Below the pieces are notes generated by a model. It did not search any database, had not been told where the DNA came from, and saw nothing but the letters and a program-made list of their open reading frames with translations. Positions 24,642-50,337 of a stretch of 64,000 nt of DNA are shown here, piece after piece (the stretch's first letter is position 1; each line of letters starts with the position of its first letter). The stretch comes from Planctomycetota bacterium (GTDB lineage Bacteria > Planctomycetota > B15-G4 > SIAN01), in the NCBI GenBank assembly GCA_016795285.1, contig JAEUIC010000023.1, positions 1-64,000 on the forward strand, read 5' to 3'. A program made the position numbers and the translations under genes.

Positions 24642-27086
24642 TCAGCCGCCGTTGTCGCCGTCGTCGACCGCTTCGCCTGCGTCGCCGGTCGGTTCCGGCG
24701 GGGCGACGGACGAGCTGTCGTAGATCAGCTCGACGCCCGCGCTCGCGCCCTCGCCGCCGTCGACGGTGAAGACGGCGCCGTCGCCGAAGCTGATCGATCC
24801 GAAGTCGAAGGTGATCGTCTGGCCGCGGCGCTGCTCGTGGCACTGGGTGCAGGAGTCGGGTTCGGGGAGCGCGATCCAGGCGAGCTCCTCGCGGCGGCGC
24901 TCGGTCATCTCCAGCGCGACGACTTGCGGCAGCGGTTCGCCGTAGCGGAGGTCGAGCGCGACGGGGGCGCTCTCGTAGCCACCGCAGCGCACCGTCAGCG
25001 ACAGCTGCGCGCGCGGCAGCGGACCGATCAGGAAGGCGTCGGAGCGCTTCGCGACGACATCGAGTCCGATCGGTTCGAGCTGCGGCTCCTGCACGGCGAC
25101 GCGCAGCGCATCCTCCGCCGCACGTTCGCGATCGATCCGGTCGGGCCAAGGCGAGGCGGTCATCTCGCGGTAGATCGGGCTGCCCTCGAAGTCGGTGAGG
25201 AAGGCGTGTCGGGTCGTCGATTCGACGCGCGTCTGCAACAGCCGCATGATCTGGACGACCGCCCGCTCCTGCAGCGTGCCGTTCGCCTCGTTCTCGCCGT
25301 TGGCCATCGCCGGCAGCAGGACGAGCGGCGGGCCGACCGACGCTCGCACCGCCTCGCCCTCCGGGACGAACGTCCCTTCGGCGATCCGCTTCGCGTCGCG
25401 CTCCACGAGGAACTCGATCGGCGCGCGCTCCTCGCGGTGGAACGTCGCCCAGTCGCCGCCGAACAGCGCGCCGCGCGCGTGGCGCAGCTCGACGACGAGG
25501 TGGGTCGGTGCGCTGACGTCGAGCGCCTGCCAGGTGTAGCCGCCGCGCGCCACGTCGACGCGCACTTGCGCGACGTCGCGCCGCGCGGGATCGAAGGCGC
25601 GCAGGAAGTAGCTGCCCTCGGCCAATCCGGTGAAGCGGAAGCGGCGGGTGCGCGAGAGGGTGAACCAGGTCGGATCGTCGCCGTCCCCGCAACCGTGCTG
25701 CGGCGCGTCGTTCGACTCGGCGATCAGCTCCTCCTCCGTCGCCCGCTCCGCCGCCTGCGCCGCCGCCTGCACCGCCGCGCGGCAGTCGGCGCAGCGGCGG
25801 CGCCCGCGTCCGCGCAGCTCGACCTGCACCGGCGCGTCGTCGGGCAGATGGCGCGCGATCACCTCGCCCTCGATCACGCCGTGGCCTCGCGACAGCGCGA
25901 AGGGGCCGAGCGCGAGCTGCACCGCCGGCTCCACCGTGAAGTCGGGGAGGAGCAGCGGCTCGTAGCCGCGCGCCTCGACCAGCGCGCTCCACCGCCCCGC
26001 GGTGAGCCCGACGTCGATCGTCGCGCCGTCGCCGTGCTCCGCGAAGCGCGCGTCCGCGAGGAAGCGCACCTGCACGTCGCTGCCGATCGGCAGCCCCGAC
26101 TCCTCATCGACCAGCGTGAAGGTGACCCGCCCCGCTTGCGGCAGCTCGCTCACCGCCGCGTTCGGGTCGCCGTCGCGCTGCGCCGCCTCGCGCTGCGCTT
26201 CCGGCAGCGCCGCGTCGGCGAGGGGCGCGTGCGCGACGCTCGCCGGATCCGCGAGCGGCGCGACGCTCGGCGCCTCGACGCGCGCACCGGACCCCACCAG
26301 CGCGGGCGGCAGCCAGCTCGTGCGCGTCGAGTAACCGACGGCGACCAACGCCGCGCTCGCGAGCCCGACCGTAAGCCAACTCTTGATCGCCATGATCGAG
26401 ACTCCCGCGGCGCACGCTCCGCCGACCCACCACCCCGTGCCGCCACTCGCGTGGACGGGAACCGTGCCCGCGCTGGCAGCGCTGCCGCTCGCGCCGGCGG
26501 CGCCGACCGTGAGCTCCGCCACCGTCCGCACGCCGGCGATCGGCAGCAACAACGCGACCCAACCGTGCGCGCCGTAGCGCCGATCGAGCTCGGCGCGCAA
26601 CCGCTCGAGCCCGCGCCGCAGCCGCGCGCGCACCGTATCGGCCGGCAGCCCGACGCGCGCCGCGATCTCGCCCGGCGTGAGCCCTTCGTGGAAGCGCAGC
26701 AGCAGCGTGGTGCGCTCCGGCTCGCCCAACGCGAGGACGGCGCGCGACAGCTCCTGTTCGAGCTCGACCCGCTCCACCAGCTCCGCCGTCGACGGGAGCG
26801 CCTCGCGTTGCGCCGCGCCCCGCTCGCGCGTTCCGCGGCGCGCTTCGCTGCGCCACCACTTCGCTGCGAGCTGCCGCGTCGCCGTCGCCAGCCAGCCGCG
26901 CAGCGCGCCCGCCTCGCGCGGCGGTGCAGCGAGGCTGGCCGTCAGCACCTCCTGCGCGACGTCGTCGGCCGCCGCCGGCGCCACCAACCGCCGCGCCAGC
27001 GCGCGCACGAAGCCGCGCTGCGCCACCAGCCGTGCGGCGTGGGGCGAGAGCGGTTCGGAGGTCGGCGGGTCGGGGAAGGGGCGCAT
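24642..27086 (-). CDS. ECF sigma-70 factor fused in frame to a transmembrane segment and a large extracytoplasmic domain of about 550 aa (single 814-aa ORF)
   Basis: Region 2 (DDVAQEVLTA ... WLATATRQLA) and region 4 (LLLRFHEGLTPGEIAARVGLPADTVRARLRRGLERLR) of ECF sigma factors. Then a TM helix (MAIKSWLTVGLASAALVAVGY) with no intervening stop in this frame, then a long C-terminal domain. Could also be sigma plus anti-sigma separated by an undetected frameshift. Confidence 0.6.
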   Translation of the reverse strand: MRPFPDPPTSEPLSPHAARLVAQRGFVRALARRLVAPAAADDVAQEVLTASLAAPPREAGALRGWLATATRQLAAKWWRSEARRGTRERGAAQREALPSTAELVERVELEQELSRAVLALGEPERTTLLLRFHEGLTPGEIAARVGLPADTVRARLRRGLERLRAELDRRYGAHGWVALLLPIAGVRTVAELTVGAAGASGSAASAGTVPVHASGGTGWWVGGACAAGVSIMAIKSWLTVGLASAALVAVGYSTRTSWLPPALVGSGARVEAPSVAPLADPASVAHAPLADAALPEAQREAAQRDGDPNAAVSELPQAGRVTFTLVDEESGLPIGSDVQVRFLADARFAEHGDGATIDVGLTAGRWSALVEARGYEPLLLPDFTVEPAVQLALGPFALSRGHGVIEGEVIARHLPDDAPVQVELRGRGRRRCADCRAAVQAAAQAAERATEEELIAESNDAPQHGCGDGDDPTWFTLSRTRRFRFTGLAEGSYFLRAFDPARRDVAQVRVDVARGGYTWQALDVSAPTHLVVELRHARGALFGGDWATFHREERAPIEFLVERDAKRIAEGTFVPEGEAVRASVGPPLVLLPAMANGENEANGTLQERAVVQIMRLLQTRVESTTRHAFLTDFEGSPIYREMTASPWPDRIDRERAAEDALRVAVQEPQLEPIGLDVVAKRSDAFLIGPLPRAQLSLTVRCGGYESAPVALDLRYGEPLPQVVALEMTERRREELAWIALPEPDSCTQCHEQRRGQTITFDFGSISFGDGAVFTVDGGEGASAGVELIYDSSSVAPPEPTGDAGEAVDDGDNGG

Positions 27087-27317
27087 GGGCTCGATACGGA
27101 GTACCCACGGAGTGCGCGGGTGCGAAGGGGCCGGCCGATTTCACGCCGCGCCGCCGGTGCGGCTCCCGTGCCGTGCGGAGCGGTGCGCCGGCGCCGGGCG
27201 TTCGCGAGAAAGTCGGGCTAGACTCCCGCGCCGCTCGTACGAGTGACGCGCGCGACGACGAGGCGGCAGTGCGCCGCTCCCACCGCGCCCCTGCCGCTCG
27301 CGGAACGGAGTCCTGCG

Positions 27318-37163: not shown

Positions 37164-37421
37164 TCACACGGTCCGCTTGCGGACGTGGGTCGGGCGCATG
37201 GCGGGGGCCTGCTTGGTGCGGCCGGCGAAGCCCTCGCGGCGAGCGGTGGCGTCGCCCTGCTTCTGCGCCTTGGCGGCTTCGTCGCCGTCGAGCGTGTCGG
37301 TCAGCGCGGCGTTCTCGGCGGCCAGCGCTTCGCCGCGCTTCGCCTCGTCCTTCGCCTCGCAGCACTTCTTGTACTTCTGCCCGGAACCACACGGGCAGGG
37401 ATCGTTGCGACCGGTCTTCAT
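37164..37421 (-). CDS. Small SEC-C motif protein
   Basis: [21 protein letters not shown] is a SEC-C metal-binding motif; 85 aa. Confidence 0.6.
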
Positions 37422-37680
37422 GGCGTCACCTCGGGAGCGGCGGGCCGGCGGCGGCGCGGCGGGATCGATCGCGGGATCGATCGCCTGCCCGCAGCGCGCT
37501 CGGCTCGGTTCAGGCCAAGAGAGTAGGCGAACATCGTCACCGCGCCCGGGGCGGAATCAACCGGGCGGCGAGGGCGGCGCGCTCGGAGCGGTCGCGCGCG
37601 GCGGGCGCGGCGGGAATATCGGACCGCGCGGCGCTCGTCTGGTGGCAGGCGACGCCCGACCCCTCCCGCGACCGGAGCCG

Positions 37681-38331
37681 ATGACCGCCTCATCGACGCC
37701 CCTCTCGACCACCTTCCCTGCCGAGGCCATCGCGCGCCTCGCCGCGGGCGACCGCGCCGCGTTGGCCGACTGCTTCCGGCAGTTCGGCGCGCGCGTCTGG
37801 CGGATCGCGAAGGGGCTGCTCGGCCAGGCGGCGGAGGCGGACGACGCGGTGCAGGAGGTCTTCCTCAAGGTGCGGGAGAAGGCGGCGCAGTTCGATGGGC
37901 GTGGCGCGTTCGAGGGGTGGCTGCGGCAGATCGCCGTGCGCCACTGCCTCGATCGCCTCGCGCAGCGGCGCCGCGACCGGCTCGCGCCCGCGGACGCCGC
38001 GCTGCGGGAGGCGCCGGCGCGAGCGCGGAGCGACGTCGCCGCGCTCGAGGACCGCGAGCAGCTCGAGCGGGCGCTCGAACGGCTGCCGGAGGAGTTCCGG
38101 ACGATCCTGCTGCTGCGCGAGATCGGCGGCTTCTCCTACCGCGAGCTCGCCGACGCGCTCGAGGTGCCGATCGGGACGGTGATGTCGCGGCTGGCGCGGG
38201 CGCGCGAGCGGCTGCTCGGCCATGCGCCGCTGGCGACGAAGGGCGCGGCGCCCGCGGCGGCGGAGCGGCGCGCGGCGGCGACGCACGAGACGGACGTGGA
38301 ACGAGGAGCGAGCGATGCGACCGGGCGATGA
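37681..38331 (+). CDS. ECF-type RNA polymerase sigma factor
   Basis: Region 2 DDAVQEVFLKV and region 4 LLLREIGGFSYRELADALEVPIGTVMSRLARARERL. Start MTASSTP at 37681. Confidence 0.8.
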   Translation: MTASSTPLSTTFPAEAIARLAAGDRAALADCFRQFGARVWRIAKGLLGQAAEADDAVQEVFLKVREKAAQFDGRGAFEGWLRQIAVRHCLDRLAQRRRDRLAPADAALREAPARARSDVAALEDREQLERALERLPEEFRTILLLREIGGFSYRELADALEVPIGTVMSRLARARERLLGHAPLATKGAAPAAAERRAAATHETDVERGASDATGR

Positions 38332-38881
38332 AGCGATCGAGCTCGACTGCGCGGCGGCGCGGCTAGCGGCGAGCCGCTGCTGCGATGGCGAAGGCGGCGA
38401 CGACGGCGCGCTCGAGCGCCATCTGGCCGGCTGCCCTGCGTGCTGCGAGTTCGCGGAGGCGTTGCCCTCGCTGGCGCAGGCGGTGCGCGCGAGCGTCGCA
38501 GAGCCCGACGGCGCGGCGCTGGCGGCGCTCGCGGCGCGGCTGCTGCTGCGCGCCGGCGGCCAGGAGCGCGCGGGCTGGCGCGGCGAGCACGGTGAGCCGC
38601 CGCGCGGCCGCGTGCTGCGTTGGCCGCGCGGGGCGCGCTTCGCGGCGGGGCTGATCGGCGCGGCGCTGGTCGGCCTGCCGGCGTGGGCGCTGCGGCGCGG
38701 AGCCGTGGACGGCGCGCTCGCCGCCGGAACGGCCGCAGCAACGGACGGCGTGCGCGCGGCGCCGCTGGTGCTCGCAGAATCGGCGTGGCTCGCGCCGCTG
38801 CAGGGGGTCGCGCTGTTGCCGGCCGATGCGTCGCTGGTGCCGTGGCGAGAGGCGCTCGGCGCCGAAGGAGGTGCGCGATGA
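38315..38881 (+). CDS. Putative zinc-binding anti-sigma factor (ChrR/RsrA-like HxxxCxxC)
   Basis: ERHLAGCPACCEF motif, a central TM helix (FAAGLIGAALVGLPAWAL), and an overlap with the sigma gene. Start MRPGDEAIELD at 38315. Confidence 0.6.
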   Translation: MRPGDEAIELDCAAARLAASRCCDGEGGDDGALERHLAGCPACCEFAEALPSLAQAVRASVAEPDGAALAALAARLLLRAGGQERAGWRGEHGEPPRGRVLRWPRGARFAAGLIGAALVGLPAWALRRGAVDGALAAGTAAATDGVRAAPLVLAESAWLAPLQGVALLPADASLVPWREALGAEGGAR

Positions 38882-39429
38882 ACGGTTCCTTCGTCCCCTG
38901 GCTGCTCGGCGGCGCGCTGGTGGCGAGCCTCTCGTGGAACGCGCTGCAGTGGGTCGACCGCGCGACGCCGGCCGACGGGGCGCGCGAGGCGGCGGCGCCG
39001 CGCGACGCGACGGGCCGCTCCGCGGCGAACGCCGCGGGGATGCAGGGCGGCGGTTGCAAGGCGGCGCTGGCGCGCGCTGGCCTCGCGCTCGATCCGGCGC
39101 GTCAAGCCGAGGTCGAGCAGCTGCTCGCGCGCTGCGACGAAGGGTGCACGAGCGACGATGCGCAGGCCGCGGCGCTGTCGAGCGCCCTGTTCGCCGCGCT
39201 GCGCGGCGCGGAGCCGCTCGATGCGGCGGCGCTGCGCGGGCGCGCTCGTGAACTCGGCGAGCTGCGGGCGGCGGCGGTCGCGCGCTCGATCGACTCGCTG
39301 GTGCGGCTGCGCGAACTCCTGGGGGCGGGCGACTTCGTCAAGCTGCTCGACGCGTGCTGCGGCACCGACGGCTGCGGCGGGAGCTGCGGCCCTGGCGACG
39401 TCGCTCCTGGCAATGGCGGCGCGGAATAA
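38878..39429 (+). CDS. Periplasmic helical protein with a C-terminal Cys cluster (possible CpxP/ZraP/Spy-like stress protein)
   Basis: Signal-anchor (MNGSFVPWLLGGALVASL), helical Ala/Leu/Arg-rich body, and a CCGTDGCGGSCGPGD tail. The ATGA overlap with the anti-sigma gene indicates co-transcription. Confidence 0.45.
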   Translation: MNGSFVPWLLGGALVASLSWNALQWVDRATPADGAREAAAPRDATGRSAANAAGMQGGGCKAALARAGLALDPARQAEVEQLLARCDEGCTSDDAQAAALSSALFAALRGAEPLDAAALRGRARELGELRAAAVARSIDSLVRLRELLGAGDFVKLLDACCGTDGCGGSCGPGDVAPGNGGAE

Positions 39430-39496
39430 ACGGCGCGGGCGGCGCGGTCCTCCTGGCGCGCGCTCGCGATGGGGCGACGCGCACCTGGAGCGAGCG

Positions 39497-39847
39497 ATGG
39501 TGAAGACCTTGGTGATCTCGTTCGGCGCGGCCTCGCTGGCGGCGCTCGGCTACGCGGGGACGCGCGGCGGCGAGGAGGGCTGTTGCGCGCCGAAGGGCGC
39601 CGCCGCGAAGGCGGCCCCGAGCGAGTGCTGCGCGAGCGAGCCGCGGCCGGCGACGATCGAGTGCACCGGCAGCGCGTGCGTCGTGCGCTACACGACCAGC
39701 GACGGCCGCGACGGCGTGATCGAGATCGCCTGCGACGGCGACGCGTGCAAGGTGGTGCGCTGCGAGCCGGCGTGCGACCGCGGCTGCGGGCCGGCCGATT
39801 GCCCGGACGGCGGCGGCTCCGGTGAGTGCTGCTCGAAGCGCGACTGA
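39497..39847 (+). CDS. Small secreted cysteine-rich protein (14 Cys in about 95 mature residues)
   Basis: Signal peptide MVKTLVISFGAASLAALGYA; mature part CCAPKG...ECCASE...CTGSAC...CDGDAC...CEPACDRGCGPADC...ECCSKRD. Confidence 0.5.
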   Translation: MVKTLVISFGAASLAALGYAGTRGGEEGCCAPKGAAAKAAPSECCASEPRPATIECTGSACVVRYTTSDGRDGVIEIACDGDACKVVRCEPACDRGCGPADCPDGGGSGECCSKRD

Positions 39848-39943
39848 GCGGCGGGGGCGGCGGCGCGCGCGGCGGTGCGGGTGACGGGCGGCGCGCGCGA
39901 ACTTCGTTCGTTCCGGCGACCCGCACCGTCGCCGGAGCCGCGC

Positions 39944-40660
39944 GTGAAGAAGCTGATCCACTACGTCTGGATGGGATCCGCCATCCTCAACACCGAAGAG
40001 AACCCCGACGTCGGGATCCTCGCCACGTGGGCGCGCTTGAACCCCGACTGGAAGGTGAACCTCTGGGTCGTCCACAAGCTGCTCGACAAGCGGGCGCGCC
40101 AGCAGATCGCGACGATCGGGAACAACTTCCACATCGAGATCCGCGACTGCGTCGACCAGGACAAGCGGGTGCTCGTCGGGTTGAACGACCAGTTCACCCA
40201 TGAGCTCTTCACGAAGTACCCGAACTACGGCGCCGCCAGCGACATCCTGCGCGTCGCGATCCTGATCAAGGAGGGCGGCCTCTACGTCGACCACGAGATC
40301 GTGCCGAAGGTGCCGCTCGGCAACCTGAACGCATCGCGCGGGCTGCTGGTCCACTTCGTCGGCGGCACCCCCACCAACGACATCCTCTATTCCGACTGCG
40401 TCGCCCACTCCTTCTTCGTGAAGTACCGCGAGCGGCTGATCGAGCGCTACGACACCGCCGATCCGAAGGTGCTGAAGCTGCGGCGCACCGACAAGGAGCT
40501 GAAGAACCAGACGACGCAGGACATGTCCGGCCCGGGGCTCCTCTGGGACGTGCTGCAGGAGACCGGCTACACCTCGCTCGAACGCCCGACCCCCGCCGAG
40601 ATCCGCTTCCCCGACGACCGCATCCGCGTGCCGACCACCTCGGCGACGAGCTGGCTCTAG
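39944..40660 (+). CDS. GT32-like glycosyltransferase (Gly_transf_sug / TcdA-TcdB-Lgt-type catalytic fold) with lower GC
   Basis: KKLIHYVWMGS (the IHxxWxG motif) and ASDILRVAILIKEGGLYVDHE (DXD region). GC is clearly lower than the flanks. Possible GTG start at 39944; an ATG start at 39875 is also possible. Confidence 0.6.
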   Translation: MKKLIHYVWMGSAILNTEENPDVGILATWARLNPDWKVNLWVVHKLLDKRARQQIATIGNNFHIEIRDCVDQDKRVLVGLNDQFTHELFTKYPNYGAASDILRVAILIKEGGLYVDHEIVPKVPLGNLNASRGLLVHFVGGTPTNDILYSDCVAHSFFVKYRERLIERYDTADPKVLKLRRTDKELKNQTTQDMSGPGLLWDVLQETGYTSLERPTPAEIRFPDDRIRVPTTSATSWL

Positions 40661-40811: not shown

Positions 40812-42014
40812 ATGGCCCTCTCCGCCGCTGCCGCCTTCGGACTGCTGCTGTCGTGGTTCGCGCTCGATCCGGCGGCGTCGGCGGCTTCCGCGGCGTCTTG
40901 CTCCCGGATCGGGACGCTCGCGAGGAGCGCGCTGCGGAGCGGTCCGAACGTCGCGCCGCCGGCGGACGACGACGATCGCAAGGGCAAGCCGAAGCGGCCG
41001 GCGACCGCCGACCCGAGCGCGGTCGTGGAGGGCGCGGCCGGGCAGGAACTCGACGAGTTCATGCAGTCGGCGCAGCACTTCCCCGAGGGGTTCAACGGCT
41101 GCGTGCTGGTCGCGAAGGAGGGCGCGGTCCTCCTCGCGAAGGGGTACGGCGTCGCCAAGGCCGACCCGCCGACGCCGATGCGCGCCGACGCGCTGTGGGA
41201 TTGGTGCAGCGTCAGCAAGCAGTTCACGGCGGCGGCCGTGCTGAAGCTCGAGATGCAGAAGAAGCTGAAGCTCGATGATCCGCTGAAGAAGTTCTGGAAG
41301 GACGCGCCGAAGGACAAGCAGGCGATCACGGTGCGCCAGCTGCTGAACCACACCTCGGGGCTCCCCACCGCGCCCGAGCTCGATCGCGCGAAGCTGTTCG
41401 ATCGCGACGCGACCGCGCAGGGGATCCTCGCCGCGCCGGTCGTCCGCGAGCCGGGCAAGAAGTGGGAGTACAACAACGCCGCCTACTTCCTGCTGGCCGC
41501 GTTGATCGAGCGCGTCTCGGGCGAGAGCTTCGAGGCGTACTGCCGCACGAACCTCTTCGCGCCGGCCGGCATGAAGGAGGCCGGCTTCATCGGCGACGGC
41601 AAGGCCGACCACGCGCGCGCGCCCGGCGACGCGCGCGGCACCAAGCCGCCGTTCGCCTATGGCGAGCGGATGTCGTGGGGCTACCGCGGCGCCGGCGGCG
41701 CGCTGGCATCGGTCTTCGACATGCTCGCGTGGGACGAGGCGCTGCGCGGCGACAAGCTGCTCTCGAAGGCGGCGAAGGCGCAGTACTACGCCGTCGGCCT
41801 CGAGAACTACGCGCTCGGCTGGGAGATGACGAAGGGGGCCGGCGGCCTGCGCGCGGCGCACAGCGGCCACACCGGCAACCTCGTCACCTACTACCTGCGC
41901 TTGCTCGACGAGCGCGTCGTCATCGCCATCGCCTACAGCTACGAGCCGAAGACCCACCCGTCGATCACGGTGGAGGAGCTGCTGCGGATCGCGCGATCGG
42001 CGAAGGGGAAATGA
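40812..42014 (+). CDS. Beta-lactamase-family serine hydrolase (class C / PBP4*-like esterase)
   Basis: SxxK (CSVSKQF), YxN (YNNAAY) and HSGHTG motifs; N-terminal signal region. Confidence 0.75.
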   Translation: MALSAAAAFGLLLSWFALDPAASAASAASCSRIGTLARSALRSGPNVAPPADDDDRKGKPKRPATADPSAVVEGAAGQELDEFMQSAQHFPEGFNGCVLVAKEGAVLLAKGYGVAKADPPTPMRADALWDWCSVSKQFTAAAVLKLEMQKKLKLDDPLKKFWKDAPKDKQAITVRQLLNHTSGLPTAPELDRAKLFDRDATAQGILAAPVVREPGKKWEYNNAAYFLLAALIERVSGESFEAYCRTNLFAPAGMKEAGFIGDGKADHARAPGDARGTKPPFAYGERMSWGYRGAGGALASVFDMLAWDEALRGDKLLSKAAKAQYYAVGLENYALGWEMTKGAGGLRAAHSGHTGNLVTYYLRLLDERVVIAIAYSYEPKTHPSITVEELLRIARSAKGK

Positions 42015-48528: not shown

Positions 48529-49977
48529 TCAACGCTCGAGCAGCGTCCGCAGCCGCGAAAGGTGGTCGCGGATGCGGCTGTCGCTGGTGGCCACCTCGTC
48601 GATCTTGCGGATGCCGTGCAGGATCGTCGTGTGGTCGCGGCCGCCGAGCTGCGCGCCGATCTCCGACAGCGACAGCTCGGTCCGCTCGCGCAGCAGGTAC
48701 ATCGCCGCCTGCCGCGCGAAGGAGAGCGCCTGCGGGCGGCGCGGCGAGCAGAGGTCGGCGACGGTCACCTCGAAGTGCTGGCAGATCGCCTTCAAGATGC
48801 GATCGGGCGACGAGGAGGGCCGCTGCAGCAGCGTGTCGTCGTGCAGCGCCGCGCGCGCCGACTTCAGCGTGACCGGCGCGCCGATCAGCTTGGCGCCGGC
48901 GATCACGCTGGTGAGCGCTCCCTCGAGCTCGCGCACGTTGTTGGTCGGCAGCTCGGCGAGGAAGTCGGCCACGTCGGCCGGCAGCGTCTCGCCGCGCAGC
49001 TTCGCCTTGGCGACGACCAGCGCGTGGCGCGTCTCGCGATCGGGAGCGCGCAGCCCGACGCGGTAGGCGCCGGCCAAGCGCGCCTGCAGCGCCGGGTCGA
49101 GGTTCAGCGTCTCGCCAGGCGCGCAGCTCGCCGCGAAGAGGAGCCGCGTCCCGCGATCGCCCCACGCGTTCAGCGTGTGGACGAGCTCGGCCTGCGTGCC
49201 GGTCTTGCCGGCGAGCAGCTGCAGGTCGTCGAAGCAGACGAAGTCGAGGCCGCGCCAGCGATCGCGGAAGCGGCTGGCCGCCTCGGCGCCCTGCGCGCAG
49301 GCGGTCACGAACTCGTTCACGAAGTTCTCGCCGCGCACGTAGGCGACCTGGCGCCCCGGCTCCGACCGAGCCGCCGCCGCTCGCGCGGCCGCCTGCAGGA
49401 GGTGGGTCTTGCCCGTGCCGGTCGCGCCGACGATGAAGAGGGTCGCGAAGTCGACCTGCGGGGAGGTGGCGAGCGACTGCGCCGCCGCCGCCGCTAGCTG
49501 GTTGCTCGGGCCGAGGACGAAGCGCGCGAGGTCGTACCCCTCGGTCAGCGGAAGGTCGCCGCAAGTCCTGACGGAGCCAGGCTTTGCGCTCTTCGCCGCC
49601 GGCGCCGCAGCGGCCGCCGGGAGGGCATTCGCGCCCCCGGAGGTGCGGCCGGTGTCCGCCTTGCCCGCCTTCGCCGGAGCGGTGGCCGGCGCCGTGGTCC
49701 GCCCGTTGGCGGCCTCGGCCCCGTCACGCCCGCCGACCTCCAGATGGAGCTCGCGGGCGCCGCCCAGCACGGTCGCGACCGACTCCTCGACCACGTCGCG
49801 GTAGTAGGTCACGATCCAATCACGGTGGAACTTGCTCGGCACTCGAAGGACTACGCGCTGCTCGTCGAGCTCCGCCAACTGCAAGTTGCGGAACCACGTC
49901 GCGAACTGTTGCGCCGTGGTCTTCTGCTCAATCTTCTCGAGAACAGCCTGCCAAAGAGTGACCGCTTTCGCGGGCAG
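48529..49977 (-). CDS. dnaA: Chromosomal replication initiator DnaA
   Basis: N-terminal LWQAVLEKIE...FATWFRNL, AAA+ Walker A LFIVGATGTGKTHLL, and domain IV ILKAICQHFEVTVADLCSPRRPQALSFARQAAMYLLRE. Start uncertain; MLPAK at 49977 is chosen, and MVGEG at 50004 or M at 50103 are also possible. Confidence 0.9.
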   Translation of the reverse strand: MPAKAVTLWQAVLEKIEQKTTAQQFATWFRNLQLAELDEQRVVLRVPSKFHRDWIVTYYRDVVEESVATVLGGARELHLEVGGRDGAEAANGRTTAPATAPAKAGKADTGRTSGGANALPAAAAAPAAKSAKPGSVRTCGDLPLTEGYDLARFVLGPSNQLAAAAAQSLATSPQVDFATLFIVGATGTGKTHLLQAAARAAAARSEPGRQVAYVRGENFVNEFVTACAQGAEAASRFRDRWRGLDFVCFDDLQLLAGKTGTQAELVHTLNAWGDRGTRLLFAASCAPGETLNLDPALQARLAGAYRVGLRAPDRETRHALVVAKAKLRGETLPADVADFLAELPTNNVRELEGALTSVIAGAKLIGAPVTLKSARAALHDDTLLQRPSSSPDRILKAICQHFEVTVADLCSPRRPQALSFARQAAMYLLRERTELSLSEIGAQLGGRDHTTILHGIRKIDEVATSDSRIRDHLSRLRTLLER

Positions 49978-50337
49978 CATCGGACGGATCCCCTCCCCCA
50001 CCATGGGTCGCCCAACCCAGGCATGCAGGTTCGGAATAGGTTGCGGCCTCGCAGGGGTCGGCGCGCAGCGCACCGGCCTGGGCCCACATGTCGTGCACGG
50101 CATCTGCTGCGGTCGCCCCCGCCTCAGAGCCGTTCTTCGTGAAGGATGTCTCCGCAGCCGGTTGGACGTCCGGTCGCGGCGTGCTGCTCTTCACTGAGAA
50201 GGCACAAGTTCTAGGGGCCGGGATTGAAGGTCGTCAACGACCTCTCCTCGTCGGACCGTTTGCGTCCCGTTCCGTGAGGACGACGCAAGTCGTTGCGCGC
50301 GACGGCTCGACGCGGATGTTGCGACTCGAAAAAAATC

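Follow-up and report, generated by a model that had tools for sequence, protein, structure and literature searches.

A four-gene ECF sigma factor cassette conserved in uncultured Planctomycetota, with a cysteine-rich exported protein as its predicted output

Sigma factors of the extracytoplasmic function (ECF) type rank among the most abundant signaling devices of bacteria, with dozens per Planctomycetota genome, and to our knowledge most of them have no known signal, promoter, or output. What one such sigma factor responds to, and what it turns on, is the question raised by a 64 kb stretch of DNA (~73% G+C; hereafter the window) from contig JAEUIC010000023.1 of a Planctomycetota metagenome-assembled genome (MAG). 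Four consecutive genes at 37681-39847 of the window encode an ECF sigma factor, an anti-sigma factor, a helical protein (P3), and a small, cysteine-rich protein that is predicted to be exported (P4). Here, we report that this gene order recurs in other Planctomycetota and that an ECF-type promoter motif lies upstream of both the sigma gene and P4. Our preferred reading, which is tentative and which we judge to have slightly less than an even chance, is a self-contained signaling cassette with the two-promoter logic of CnrYXH/cnrCBA, a thiol-reactive cue, and P4 as a sink. The sensor-to-output circuit is compact and can be read from sequence alone, with a predicted motif, two target sites, and one dedicated output gene. 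It could be tested in a heterologous host, so the source organism would not be needed in culture.

The original prediction, an earlier reading of this DNA from its letters, placed four consecutive plus-strand genes here and described the first three as coupled by start-stop overlaps; both points hold (Table 1). In NCBI, the source MAG is recorded as "Planctomycetes bacterium," and its four proteins (MBL8842204-07) have these same lengths. The first is annotated as a sigma-70 family sigma factor, and the anti-sigma factor, P3, and P4 (JNL90_11840 to JNL90_11850) are listed as hypothetical proteins. A ribosome-binding site of the GGAG/GAGG type lies directly 5' of each of the four starts, and GC content at the third codon position is 0.87-0.97 in the called frames.

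Sequence profiles identify the first gene product as an ECF (group 4) sigma factor of the sigma-70 family, as had been proposed. It matches the Pfam models Sigma70_r2 (6e-17), Sigma70_r4_2 (2.9e-16), and Sigma70_ECF (3.9e-6), as well as TIGR02937 at 97.6 bits (cut-off 42.9); many NCBIfam ECF equivalogs also match, all sub-threshold. The nearest solved structures are SigE, SigH, SigW, and RpoE. The second gene product is, by its motifs, a single-pass membrane anti-sigma factor with an N-terminal zinc-finger domain of the ZAS type (class I). The HxxxCxxC signature and single transmembrane helix noted earlier are both present, the former as C12...H36-x3-C40-x2-C43 and the latter at approximately residues 109-126. 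All four putative ligands and a DGE motif are invariant in an alignment of eight orthologs. Six of the eight match Pfam zf-HC2 (best E 1.3e-6), the window protein alone gives a faint match (E 0.17, 12.4 bits vs a threshold of 22.2), and a profile of the anti-sigma factor searched against PDB sequences found only a faint match to RsiW (E 0.65). The C-terminus carries a short conserved segment, WL(A/E)PL-G-AL-P-D.

The third gene product, P3, has an N-terminal hydrophobic helix followed by a helical domain. Alone, the window P3 is sub-threshold for PF13801 (E 3e-3, 18 bits vs a gathering score of 29.2); therefore, its family membership is drawn from the orthologs, all eight of which match PF13801 (best E 3.8e-13), with two of the eight also matching LTXXQ (PF07813). 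Distant orthologs carry LTXXQ-like motifs at the two expected positions (LTAEQ/LTDEQ in locus L011 and LMADQ/LTPAQ in L012), and these motifs are degenerate in the window P3. The AlphaFold model is confident over residues 59-163 (pLDDT 76-91), where it predicts a short-long-long-short hooked helical hairpin. Its top structural matches are ZraP, CpxP, and CnrXs, with scores that do not discriminate alone, as helical hairpins are generic. Searched against PDB sequences, a four-sequence P3 profile returned nothing meaningful, and an eight-sequence profile returned near-threshold matches to CpxP and Spy. Because the predicted fold agrees with the sequence profiles and with these near-threshold matches, we assign P3 to the CpxP/Spy/ZraP/CnrX superfamily (PF13801) as a membrane-anchored helical protein.

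Cysteines dominate the candidate ligands of P3. Every full-length ortholog has seven or eight, of which one or two directly follow the membrane helix, two form a CxxxC in the first long helix, and the others lie in the tail. The window tail reads ...LLDACCGTDGCGGSCGPGDVAPGNGGAE, with a CC-x4-C-x3-C motif. The CC-x4-C part of this motif takes the form CC-x3/4-C in most lineages, and C160 is invariant. The original prediction had this motif at the very end of the protein; the motif is there, and nine more residues follow it. Histidines number zero in the window P3 and 0-2 in the other orthologs, and the window P3 contains two methionines, initiator included.

P3 had also been described as periplasmic. 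The helical part of that description stands, and the periplasmic part is less secure. Flanking the membrane helix, we counted 0-1 K/R residues on the N-side and 1-3 on the C-side, so the positive-inside rule does not favor a periplasmic C-terminal domain. A periplasmic placement is uncertain and would derive solely from analogy within the family. A cytoplasmic domain would have reduced thiols and would act beside the zinc-finger domain, and P4 might then be the partner of the conserved periplasmic tail of the anti-sigma factor.

The fourth gene product, P4, is predicted to be a small, exported, Cys-rich protein with a Sec-type signal or anchor, from a rare unannotated family. The gene call, the cysteine count (14 in 116 residues, or 12%), and a signal-like N-terminal segment (MVKTLVISFGAASLAALGYAG) agree with the secreted 14-Cys protein described earlier. 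K or R occurs in the signal n-region of all P4 orthologs, and a lipobox is present in L011 (LAAC) and possibly in L019 (LGGC). No Pfam, NCBIfam, or PDB sequence match was found, including with a P4 profile against PDB, and neither the metallothionein family (SmtA) nor the Csp four-helix bundle was matched by sequence or fold. The proposal that P4 is metallothionein-like therefore gained no support from these comparisons. Profile searches, which had been suggested as a check for the two downstream proteins, thus led from P3 to the PF13801 superfamily and from P4 to no known family.

The AlphaFold model of P4 is poor overall (pLDDT 49) with a better core at residues 51-93 (pLDDT ~70), which is predicted to form four strands. 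This core is conserved and holds six invariant cysteines, and the Cys-rich flanks, with their CC pairs, vary in length and sequence. In total, the orthologs have 10-16 cysteines, an odd number in some. Each invariant Cx4C pair (C56/C61 and C79/C84) flanks a hairpin turn in the model, and these pairs would suit structural disulfides no less well than a metal site.

Such disulfides are part of a different explanation, in which the four genes form a generic envelope folding-stress module of the Cpx or sigma-E kind. P3 would be a chaperone-like inhibitor titrated off the anti-sigma factor by misfolded proteins, the cysteines of P3 and P4 would be structural disulfides, and P4 would be an envelope mini-protein, e.g., a structural protein, protease inhibitor, or adhesin. 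The placement of P3 in the CpxP/Spy/ZraP superfamily by both sequence and fold fits this explanation, and the Cx4C-flanked turns of the P4 model would suit disulfide staples. It also has precedents in CpxP titration and in ZraP as a chaperone and repressor (PMC6737893), and it agrees with a window that has no metal genes near the module. However, we consider it quite unlikely. P3 and P4 have both kept their cysteine decoration. This includes vicinal CC pairs, which do not readily form mutual disulfides, and it extends to regions whose length and sequence are otherwise free to vary. Furthermore, the odd counts in some P4 orthologs do not fit well with this explanation, and neither do the clade-specific neighbors, which are arsenic- and thiol-related (see below).

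Next, we consider how widely the unit is distributed. A word-indexed search of 5.8 billion proteins returned P4 itself plus two relatives, and only three relatives of P3. The P4 profile, run as an exhaustive hidden Markov model search against 1.84 billion cluster representatives, gave eight matches, five of which are credible small proteins (P0003, P0007, P0008, P0011, and P0012). We rejected P0009, a tandem-repeat sequence with a CKV(I/V)RC word, as well as P0010 and P0013, which are ankyrin/STAND proteins. Among the genomes of 185,579 GTDB species representatives, the P4 profile had zero matches, and the P3 profile identified two MAGs, L012 (Planctomycetota) and L013 (Phycisphaeraceae). Scans of JGI metagenomes added several contigs (L016-L021).

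The order sigma factor, zinc-finger anti-sigma factor, PF13801 protein, P4 is present in every locus that is long enough to show it. The full four-gene loci are the window, L003, L001, L011, L012 (the same as L017), L016, L013, and L020. On the short contigs L004, L005, L008, L009, and L019, the P3 C-terminus lies directly upstream of P4 in all cases. P4 follows either the triad or P3 in every related locus, covering about ten Planctomycetota lineages. The arrangement is not due to chance: at least six independent Planctomycetota lineages share the order, and every partial contig has the P3-P4 pair. The P4 family is small and confined to Planctomycetota without cultures. Flanking genes are not conserved across lineages; those after P4 include neighbors typical of Planctomycetota, such as an open reading frame (ORF) with a PSCyt-type motif in L009, and a large convergent ORF in L008.

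From the window clade and L001, we aligned the regions upstream of the sigma genes together with the P3-P4 spacers, and derived a common motif consisting of GGAAT, 19 nt, and GTC (usually cTGTC). ECF promoters usually have GGAAY at -35 and (C)GTC/GTT at -10, such as GGAAT-N18-GTT for the ZAS-regulated SigR. On both strands of the window, GGAAT-N19-GTC has three matches vs ~1.0 expected, and two of the three lie upstream of the sigma gene and P4 (Table 1). The one before P4 overlaps the last codons and stop of P3. The third, at 50033, is antisense inside the 5' end of dnaA; as no plus-strand gene follows it, we took it as chance.

The lineages outside this derivation are L005, L008, L009, L011, L012, and L013, together with the further entries L016, L019, and L020. 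The motif is found upstream of the sigma gene in L003, L001, L011, L012, L016, and L020, and upstream of P4 in L003, L004, L001, L005, L008, L009, L011, L012, L016, and L019. Two loci carry variants: L013 has N18 spacing at both positions, and L020, with a regular motif upstream of the sigma gene, has GGAAG-N19-GTC upstream of P4 (one mismatch in the -35 element). The contigs of L005, L008, L009, and L019 contain no DNA upstream of the sigma gene. Counting the L013 and L020 variants, the motif is present at every sigma and P4 gene with readable upstream DNA. It is also specific to these sites: both matches in the 16 kb of L001 are at the sigma and P4 positions, and the only two in the 9.3 kb of L011 are upstream of P4 and of the sigma gene. 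L008 has one further match, located ~0.9 kb downstream of P4.

The chance expectation, based on the background rate in the window, is ~8e-4 per 100-nt upstream region, and with so low an expectation, recurrence in at least five further lineages is far beyond chance. The P3 reading frame does not explain the conservation either, because the motif falls after the P3 stop codon in several lineages (L005, L011, L012, and L013). Shared ancestry adds to the conservation, though the spacers between the two elements have otherwise diverged. A different promoter for the P3-P4 spacer, pairing GGAAT with a CGCGATGG box ~39 nt away, was rejected, as this spacing is too long and GTC at N19 fits. A conserved ECF-type motif upstream of 39497, which the original prediction had proposed to look for, is thus present, and ties P4 to the sigma factor. 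From these sites, we infer that the sigma factor binds both motifs; it appears to autoregulate its own operon and to drive P4 directly. P4 is likely a dedicated sigma-dependent output in a two-promoter layout. Read-through from P3 into P4 probably contributes as well, since there is no terminator-like site between them.

P4 might alternatively be a regulator, with the regulon of the sigma factor elsewhere. A sigma-induced exported P4 would then bind the periplasmic tail of the anti-sigma factor or P3 and close a feedback loop. The short conserved periplasmic segment of the anti-sigma factor needs a partner, and if P3 is cytoplasmic, P4 would be the sole co-conserved extracytoplasmic protein; CpxP and ZraP are precedents for induced periplasmic feedback proteins. 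We regard this role as very improbable, as the 64-kb window contains just the one further motif match, antisense inside dnaA, and the variable Cys-rich tails of P4 resemble capacity more than a specific interface.

The P4 5' leader contains a second conserved element, a GCGAT(G/C)G(G/T)GC box inside a predicted hairpin (Table 1). The box is kept in six lineages (the window clade, L001, L005, L008, L009, and L012), occurs as a variant in L020, and is absent from L011 and L013. The arms around it are complementary and differ between lineages. RNAalifold gives nine pairs, four with compensatory changes, and a covariation term of ~0, which is weak support; the single-sequence fold has -26.7 kcal/mol and z = -2.0. 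The leader has no Rfam match. Sequestration of the Shine-Dalgarno sequence, which the window fold suggested, was rejected because the CUCC partner is not conserved elsewhere and is probably upstream of the transcription start. Around the module, we detected no sigma-70-type promoter, intrinsic terminator, or Rfam family, and a general repeat search of the region gave GC-rich noise only. An inverted repeat 3' of P4 (39860-39941) was discarded as a signal, as it folds no better than shuffled sequence (z -0.17).

Table 1. Genes and predicted elements of the module, followed by other features of the window
Feature	Position	Strand	Remarks
Sigma gene	37681-38331	+	216 aa
Anti-sigma gene	38315-38881	+	188 aa; 17-nt overlap with sigma gene
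P3 gene	38878-39429	+	183 aa; ATGA start/stop overlap with anti-sigma gene
P4 gene	39497-39847	+	116 aa; 67-nt spacer after P3
Predicted autoregulatory promoter, GGAAT-N19-GTC	37613..37639	+	3' end 41 nt before sigma start codon
Predicted internal P4 promoter, GGAAT-N19-GTC	39423..39449	+	3' end 47 nt before P4 start codon
Leader box GCGAT(G/C)G(G/T)GC	39466-39476	+	Inside predicted hairpin 39459..39483, P4 5' leader
SEC-C-motif gene	37164-37421	-	Small protein, zinc-binding motif
Tandem 12-nt repeat	37460-37483		Two copies
TcdA/TcdB-type glycosyltransferase gene	39875-40660	+	DXD sugar-binding region
Serine hydrolase gene	40812-42014	+	Beta-lactamase family, D-aminopeptidase/AmpH-like
dnaA-like ORF	48529-50103	-	Identified by eye from translation
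Extended ECF-like sigma factor gene	24642-27140	-	Unusual

The first three genes are a known architecture and not novel. In group ECF281, the gene for the ECF sigma factor is followed by genes for a zinc-finger anti-sigma factor (+1) and for a "heavy-metal resistance" PF13801 protein (+2) (Casas-Pastor et al. 2021, NAR; PMC7826278). Its description is purely bioinformatic, cites no characterized member, and relates the group to the old ECF20 group, which holds CnrH (PMC7826278). Our literature search found no paper on a characterized ECF281 member. Gene order and domain content are shared with the first three genes here, a likeness at the level of the gene neighborhood. However, the ECF281 description includes neither a fourth conserved Cys-rich gene nor the promoter motif found here. 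The new elements are the co-conserved Cys-rich P4 family, the substitution of Cys for His in a protein of CpxP/ZraP/CnrX fold, and the predicted two-promoter wiring.

The closest regulatory logic is that of CnrYXH/cnrCBAT, the Ni/Co system of Cupriavidus metallidurans, in which sensor, anti-sigma factor, and sigma factor are encoded in one autoregulated operon with the sigma-dependent promoters cnrYp and cnrCp (PMC6851896). Both systems have an ECF sigma factor, a single-pass anti-sigma factor, and a membrane-anchored protein of PF13801 fold in one operon, as well as a second sigma-dependent promoter for an effector; autoregulation of the operon and the second promoter are predicted in our case. 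Nevertheless, the module is not a Cnr system, as anti-sigma class, metal site, gene order, and effector all differ. The anti-sigma factor here is ZAS-type (class I), whereas CnrY is class II. The effector is a small Cys-rich exported protein instead of an RND efflux pump, and the window has no efflux genes near the module. CnrX binds metal through His42/His46/Glu63/His119 and Met123 (PMC6851896), and P3 has cysteines in place of this site.

P3 also resembles ZraP, CpxP, and Spy in its fold, in the LTXXQ motifs of distant orthologs, and in its association with an envelope signaling system. Those proteins, however, are soluble periplasmic partners of two-component systems and are not Cys-rich, unlike P3 with its N-terminal membrane helix, 7-8 cysteines, and CC-x3/4-C tail. 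CpxP inhibits until it is titrated away, and ZraP works as a chaperone and as a repressor; the two are induced periplasmic proteins that damp their own system and are titrated by ligand (PMC6737893).

Putting these elements together, we propose the following mechanism for the preferred reading. At rest, the single-pass zinc-finger anti-sigma factor would keep the sigma factor at the membrane. P3, presumably co-translated with the anti-sigma factor, would be a sensor or modulator, for which the sole candidate ligands are cysteines (the CxxxC in helix 2 and the CC-x3/4-C tail). A thiol-reactive cue would alter the P3/anti-sigma complex and free the sigma factor. The freed sigma factor would transcribe from the two GGAAT-N19-GTC promoters, that of its own operon (positive autoregulation) and that of P4. 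P4 would then be exported, as a soluble or membrane-anchored protein in most lineages and as a lipoprotein in at least one, and may serve in the envelope as a Cys-rich sink or buffer for the inducing agent. The preferred cue would be a thiophilic metal or metalloid, e.g., As(III), Cd, Hg, or Cu(I), with disulfide or redox stress as the alternative.

We favor a thiol-reactive signal because the candidate ligands are almost all cysteines with vicinal CC pairs, because the P3 tail is ArsD-like, and because ars and ResA-like genes adjoin the module in some loci. Within this class, we give a soft metal or metalloid a slight preference over pure redox stress. ArsD binds As(III) through Cys12/13/18, a CC-x4-C site (PMC4562236). 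The P3 tail has the same spacing in the window and CC-x3/4-C in most lineages; this is a resemblance of motif only, with no homology, and ArsD is cytosolic and of thioredoxin fold. In the L012 clade, which includes L016 and L017, the module has an arsenic operon directly upstream on the same strand (592-2532 in L012). It consists of arsR, arsI/cadI (NF041414, 125 bits vs a cut-off of 116), and a fusion of an aquaporin (MIP) to a thioredoxin-type arsenate reductase (MIP::arsC). In this clade, the sigma promoter motif overlaps the end of the MIP::arsC gene. In L005, and in this lineage only, the gene directly downstream of P4 (919-2376) encodes a 485-aa protein whose C-terminal thioredoxin domain is ResA/DsbE-like (WCPNC).

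The L005 neighbor would fit a thiol/disulfide stress module, in which the P3 cysteines, and possibly the zinc finger as in RsrA, would sense oxidants, electrophiles, or failure of disulfide formation. P4 would be a sacrificial or redox-buffering protein of the envelope, or would partner the P3 tail in a disulfide relay. The anti-sigma factor carries the full C...HxxxCxxC set of redox-sensing ZAS proteins, P3 thiols in the cytoplasm would be reduced and oxidant-sensing, and the odd cysteine counts in some P4 orthologs (range 10-16) imply that some thiols are outside intramolecular disulfides. On the other hand, most anti-sigma factors of the ZAS type are not known as redox sensors, the redoxin neighbor is limited to one lineage, and metalloids are indicated by the ars linkage in another clade. 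Oxidative folding that is already under stress would also be burdened further by the induction of a protein with 10-16 cysteines. We regard a pure redox module as unlikely.

Several observations weigh against the cassette with a thiol-reactive cue and a P4 sink. The ars and redoxin neighbors are each limited to one clade, and no metal, arsenic, or redox genes lie near the module in the window. The sigma factor is not especially near CnrH, which was not among its PDB matches at E < 1e-5, and the His/Glu/Met site of CnrX is missing from P3. PF13801 membership does not imply a metal signal, because the relatives CpxP and Spy respond to protein misfolding and not to metals. The charge pattern of P3 suggests that a CnrX-like periplasmic docking geometry may be wrong, and the core cysteines of P4, judged from a low-confidence model, could simply be structural disulfides. 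The promoter motif was first derived post hoc from these loci, and then confirmed in lineages outside the derivation. Finally, all of the source organisms are uncultured.

A more specific version of the metal reading is that P4 is the founder of a class of exported, Cys-based metal(loid) sponges under exclusive ECF control, with P3 as a sensor of CpxP/ZraP fold in which an ArsD-like CC-x3/4-C thiolate site has taken the place of His/Glu ligands. We consider it somewhat unlikely. If true, it would be the first ECF pathway to sense, at the envelope, a thiophilic metal(loid), e.g., As(III), Cd, Hg, or Cu(I). That metal can be stored by cysteines in an exported protein is known from Csp1 (PMC7558416). 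P4 shares with Csp1 and SmtA its small size, its cysteine richness, and (as predicted) its inducibility. In contrast, Csp1 is a Tat-exported four-helix bundle and SmtA is cytosolic, whereas P4 carries a signal of the Sec type and is predicted to have a beta-hairpin core. Should the signal be a thiophilic metal or metalloid, a Cys-based variant would join the CnrX/ZraP sensor family together with a new exported Cys-rich sequestering protein, and an orthogonal biosensor switch could be built from the parts. Should it not be a metal, the module would be an ordinary lineage-restricted ECF cassette that targets an unannotated small protein.

The remaining observations concern the surroundings of the module in the window (Table 1). 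Upstream are genes for a SEC-C-motif protein and a carboxypeptidase-regulatory-domain protein, and downstream are genes for a TcdA/TcdB-like glycosyltransferase, a serine hydrolase, LigT, an MshEN-domain protein, and a DJ-1/PfpI protein. The SEC-C-motif gene is divergent from the sigma operon, and is conserved in L003 and not in more distant loci. Between these divergent genes lies a tandem repeat of CGGGATCGATCG with a GATCGATC palindrome. It is identical in L003 and could be an operator for another regulator.

The glycosyltransferase gene, also present in L003, sits between P4 and the serine hydrolase gene. It is missing from the close relative L004, where the hydrolase gene directly follows P4. 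Its GC content at codon positions 1 and 2 (0.62 and 0.40) is unusually low for the genome, which suggests an insertion. The serine hydrolase adjoins the module downstream in the window clade, and upstream and divergent in L001 (4997-6214, minus strand); it does not adjoin it in the other lineages. The dnaA-like ORF suggests that the chromosomal replication origin region may be ~10 kb from the module. Lastly, the window encodes a further, unusual ECF-like sigma factor of extended length.

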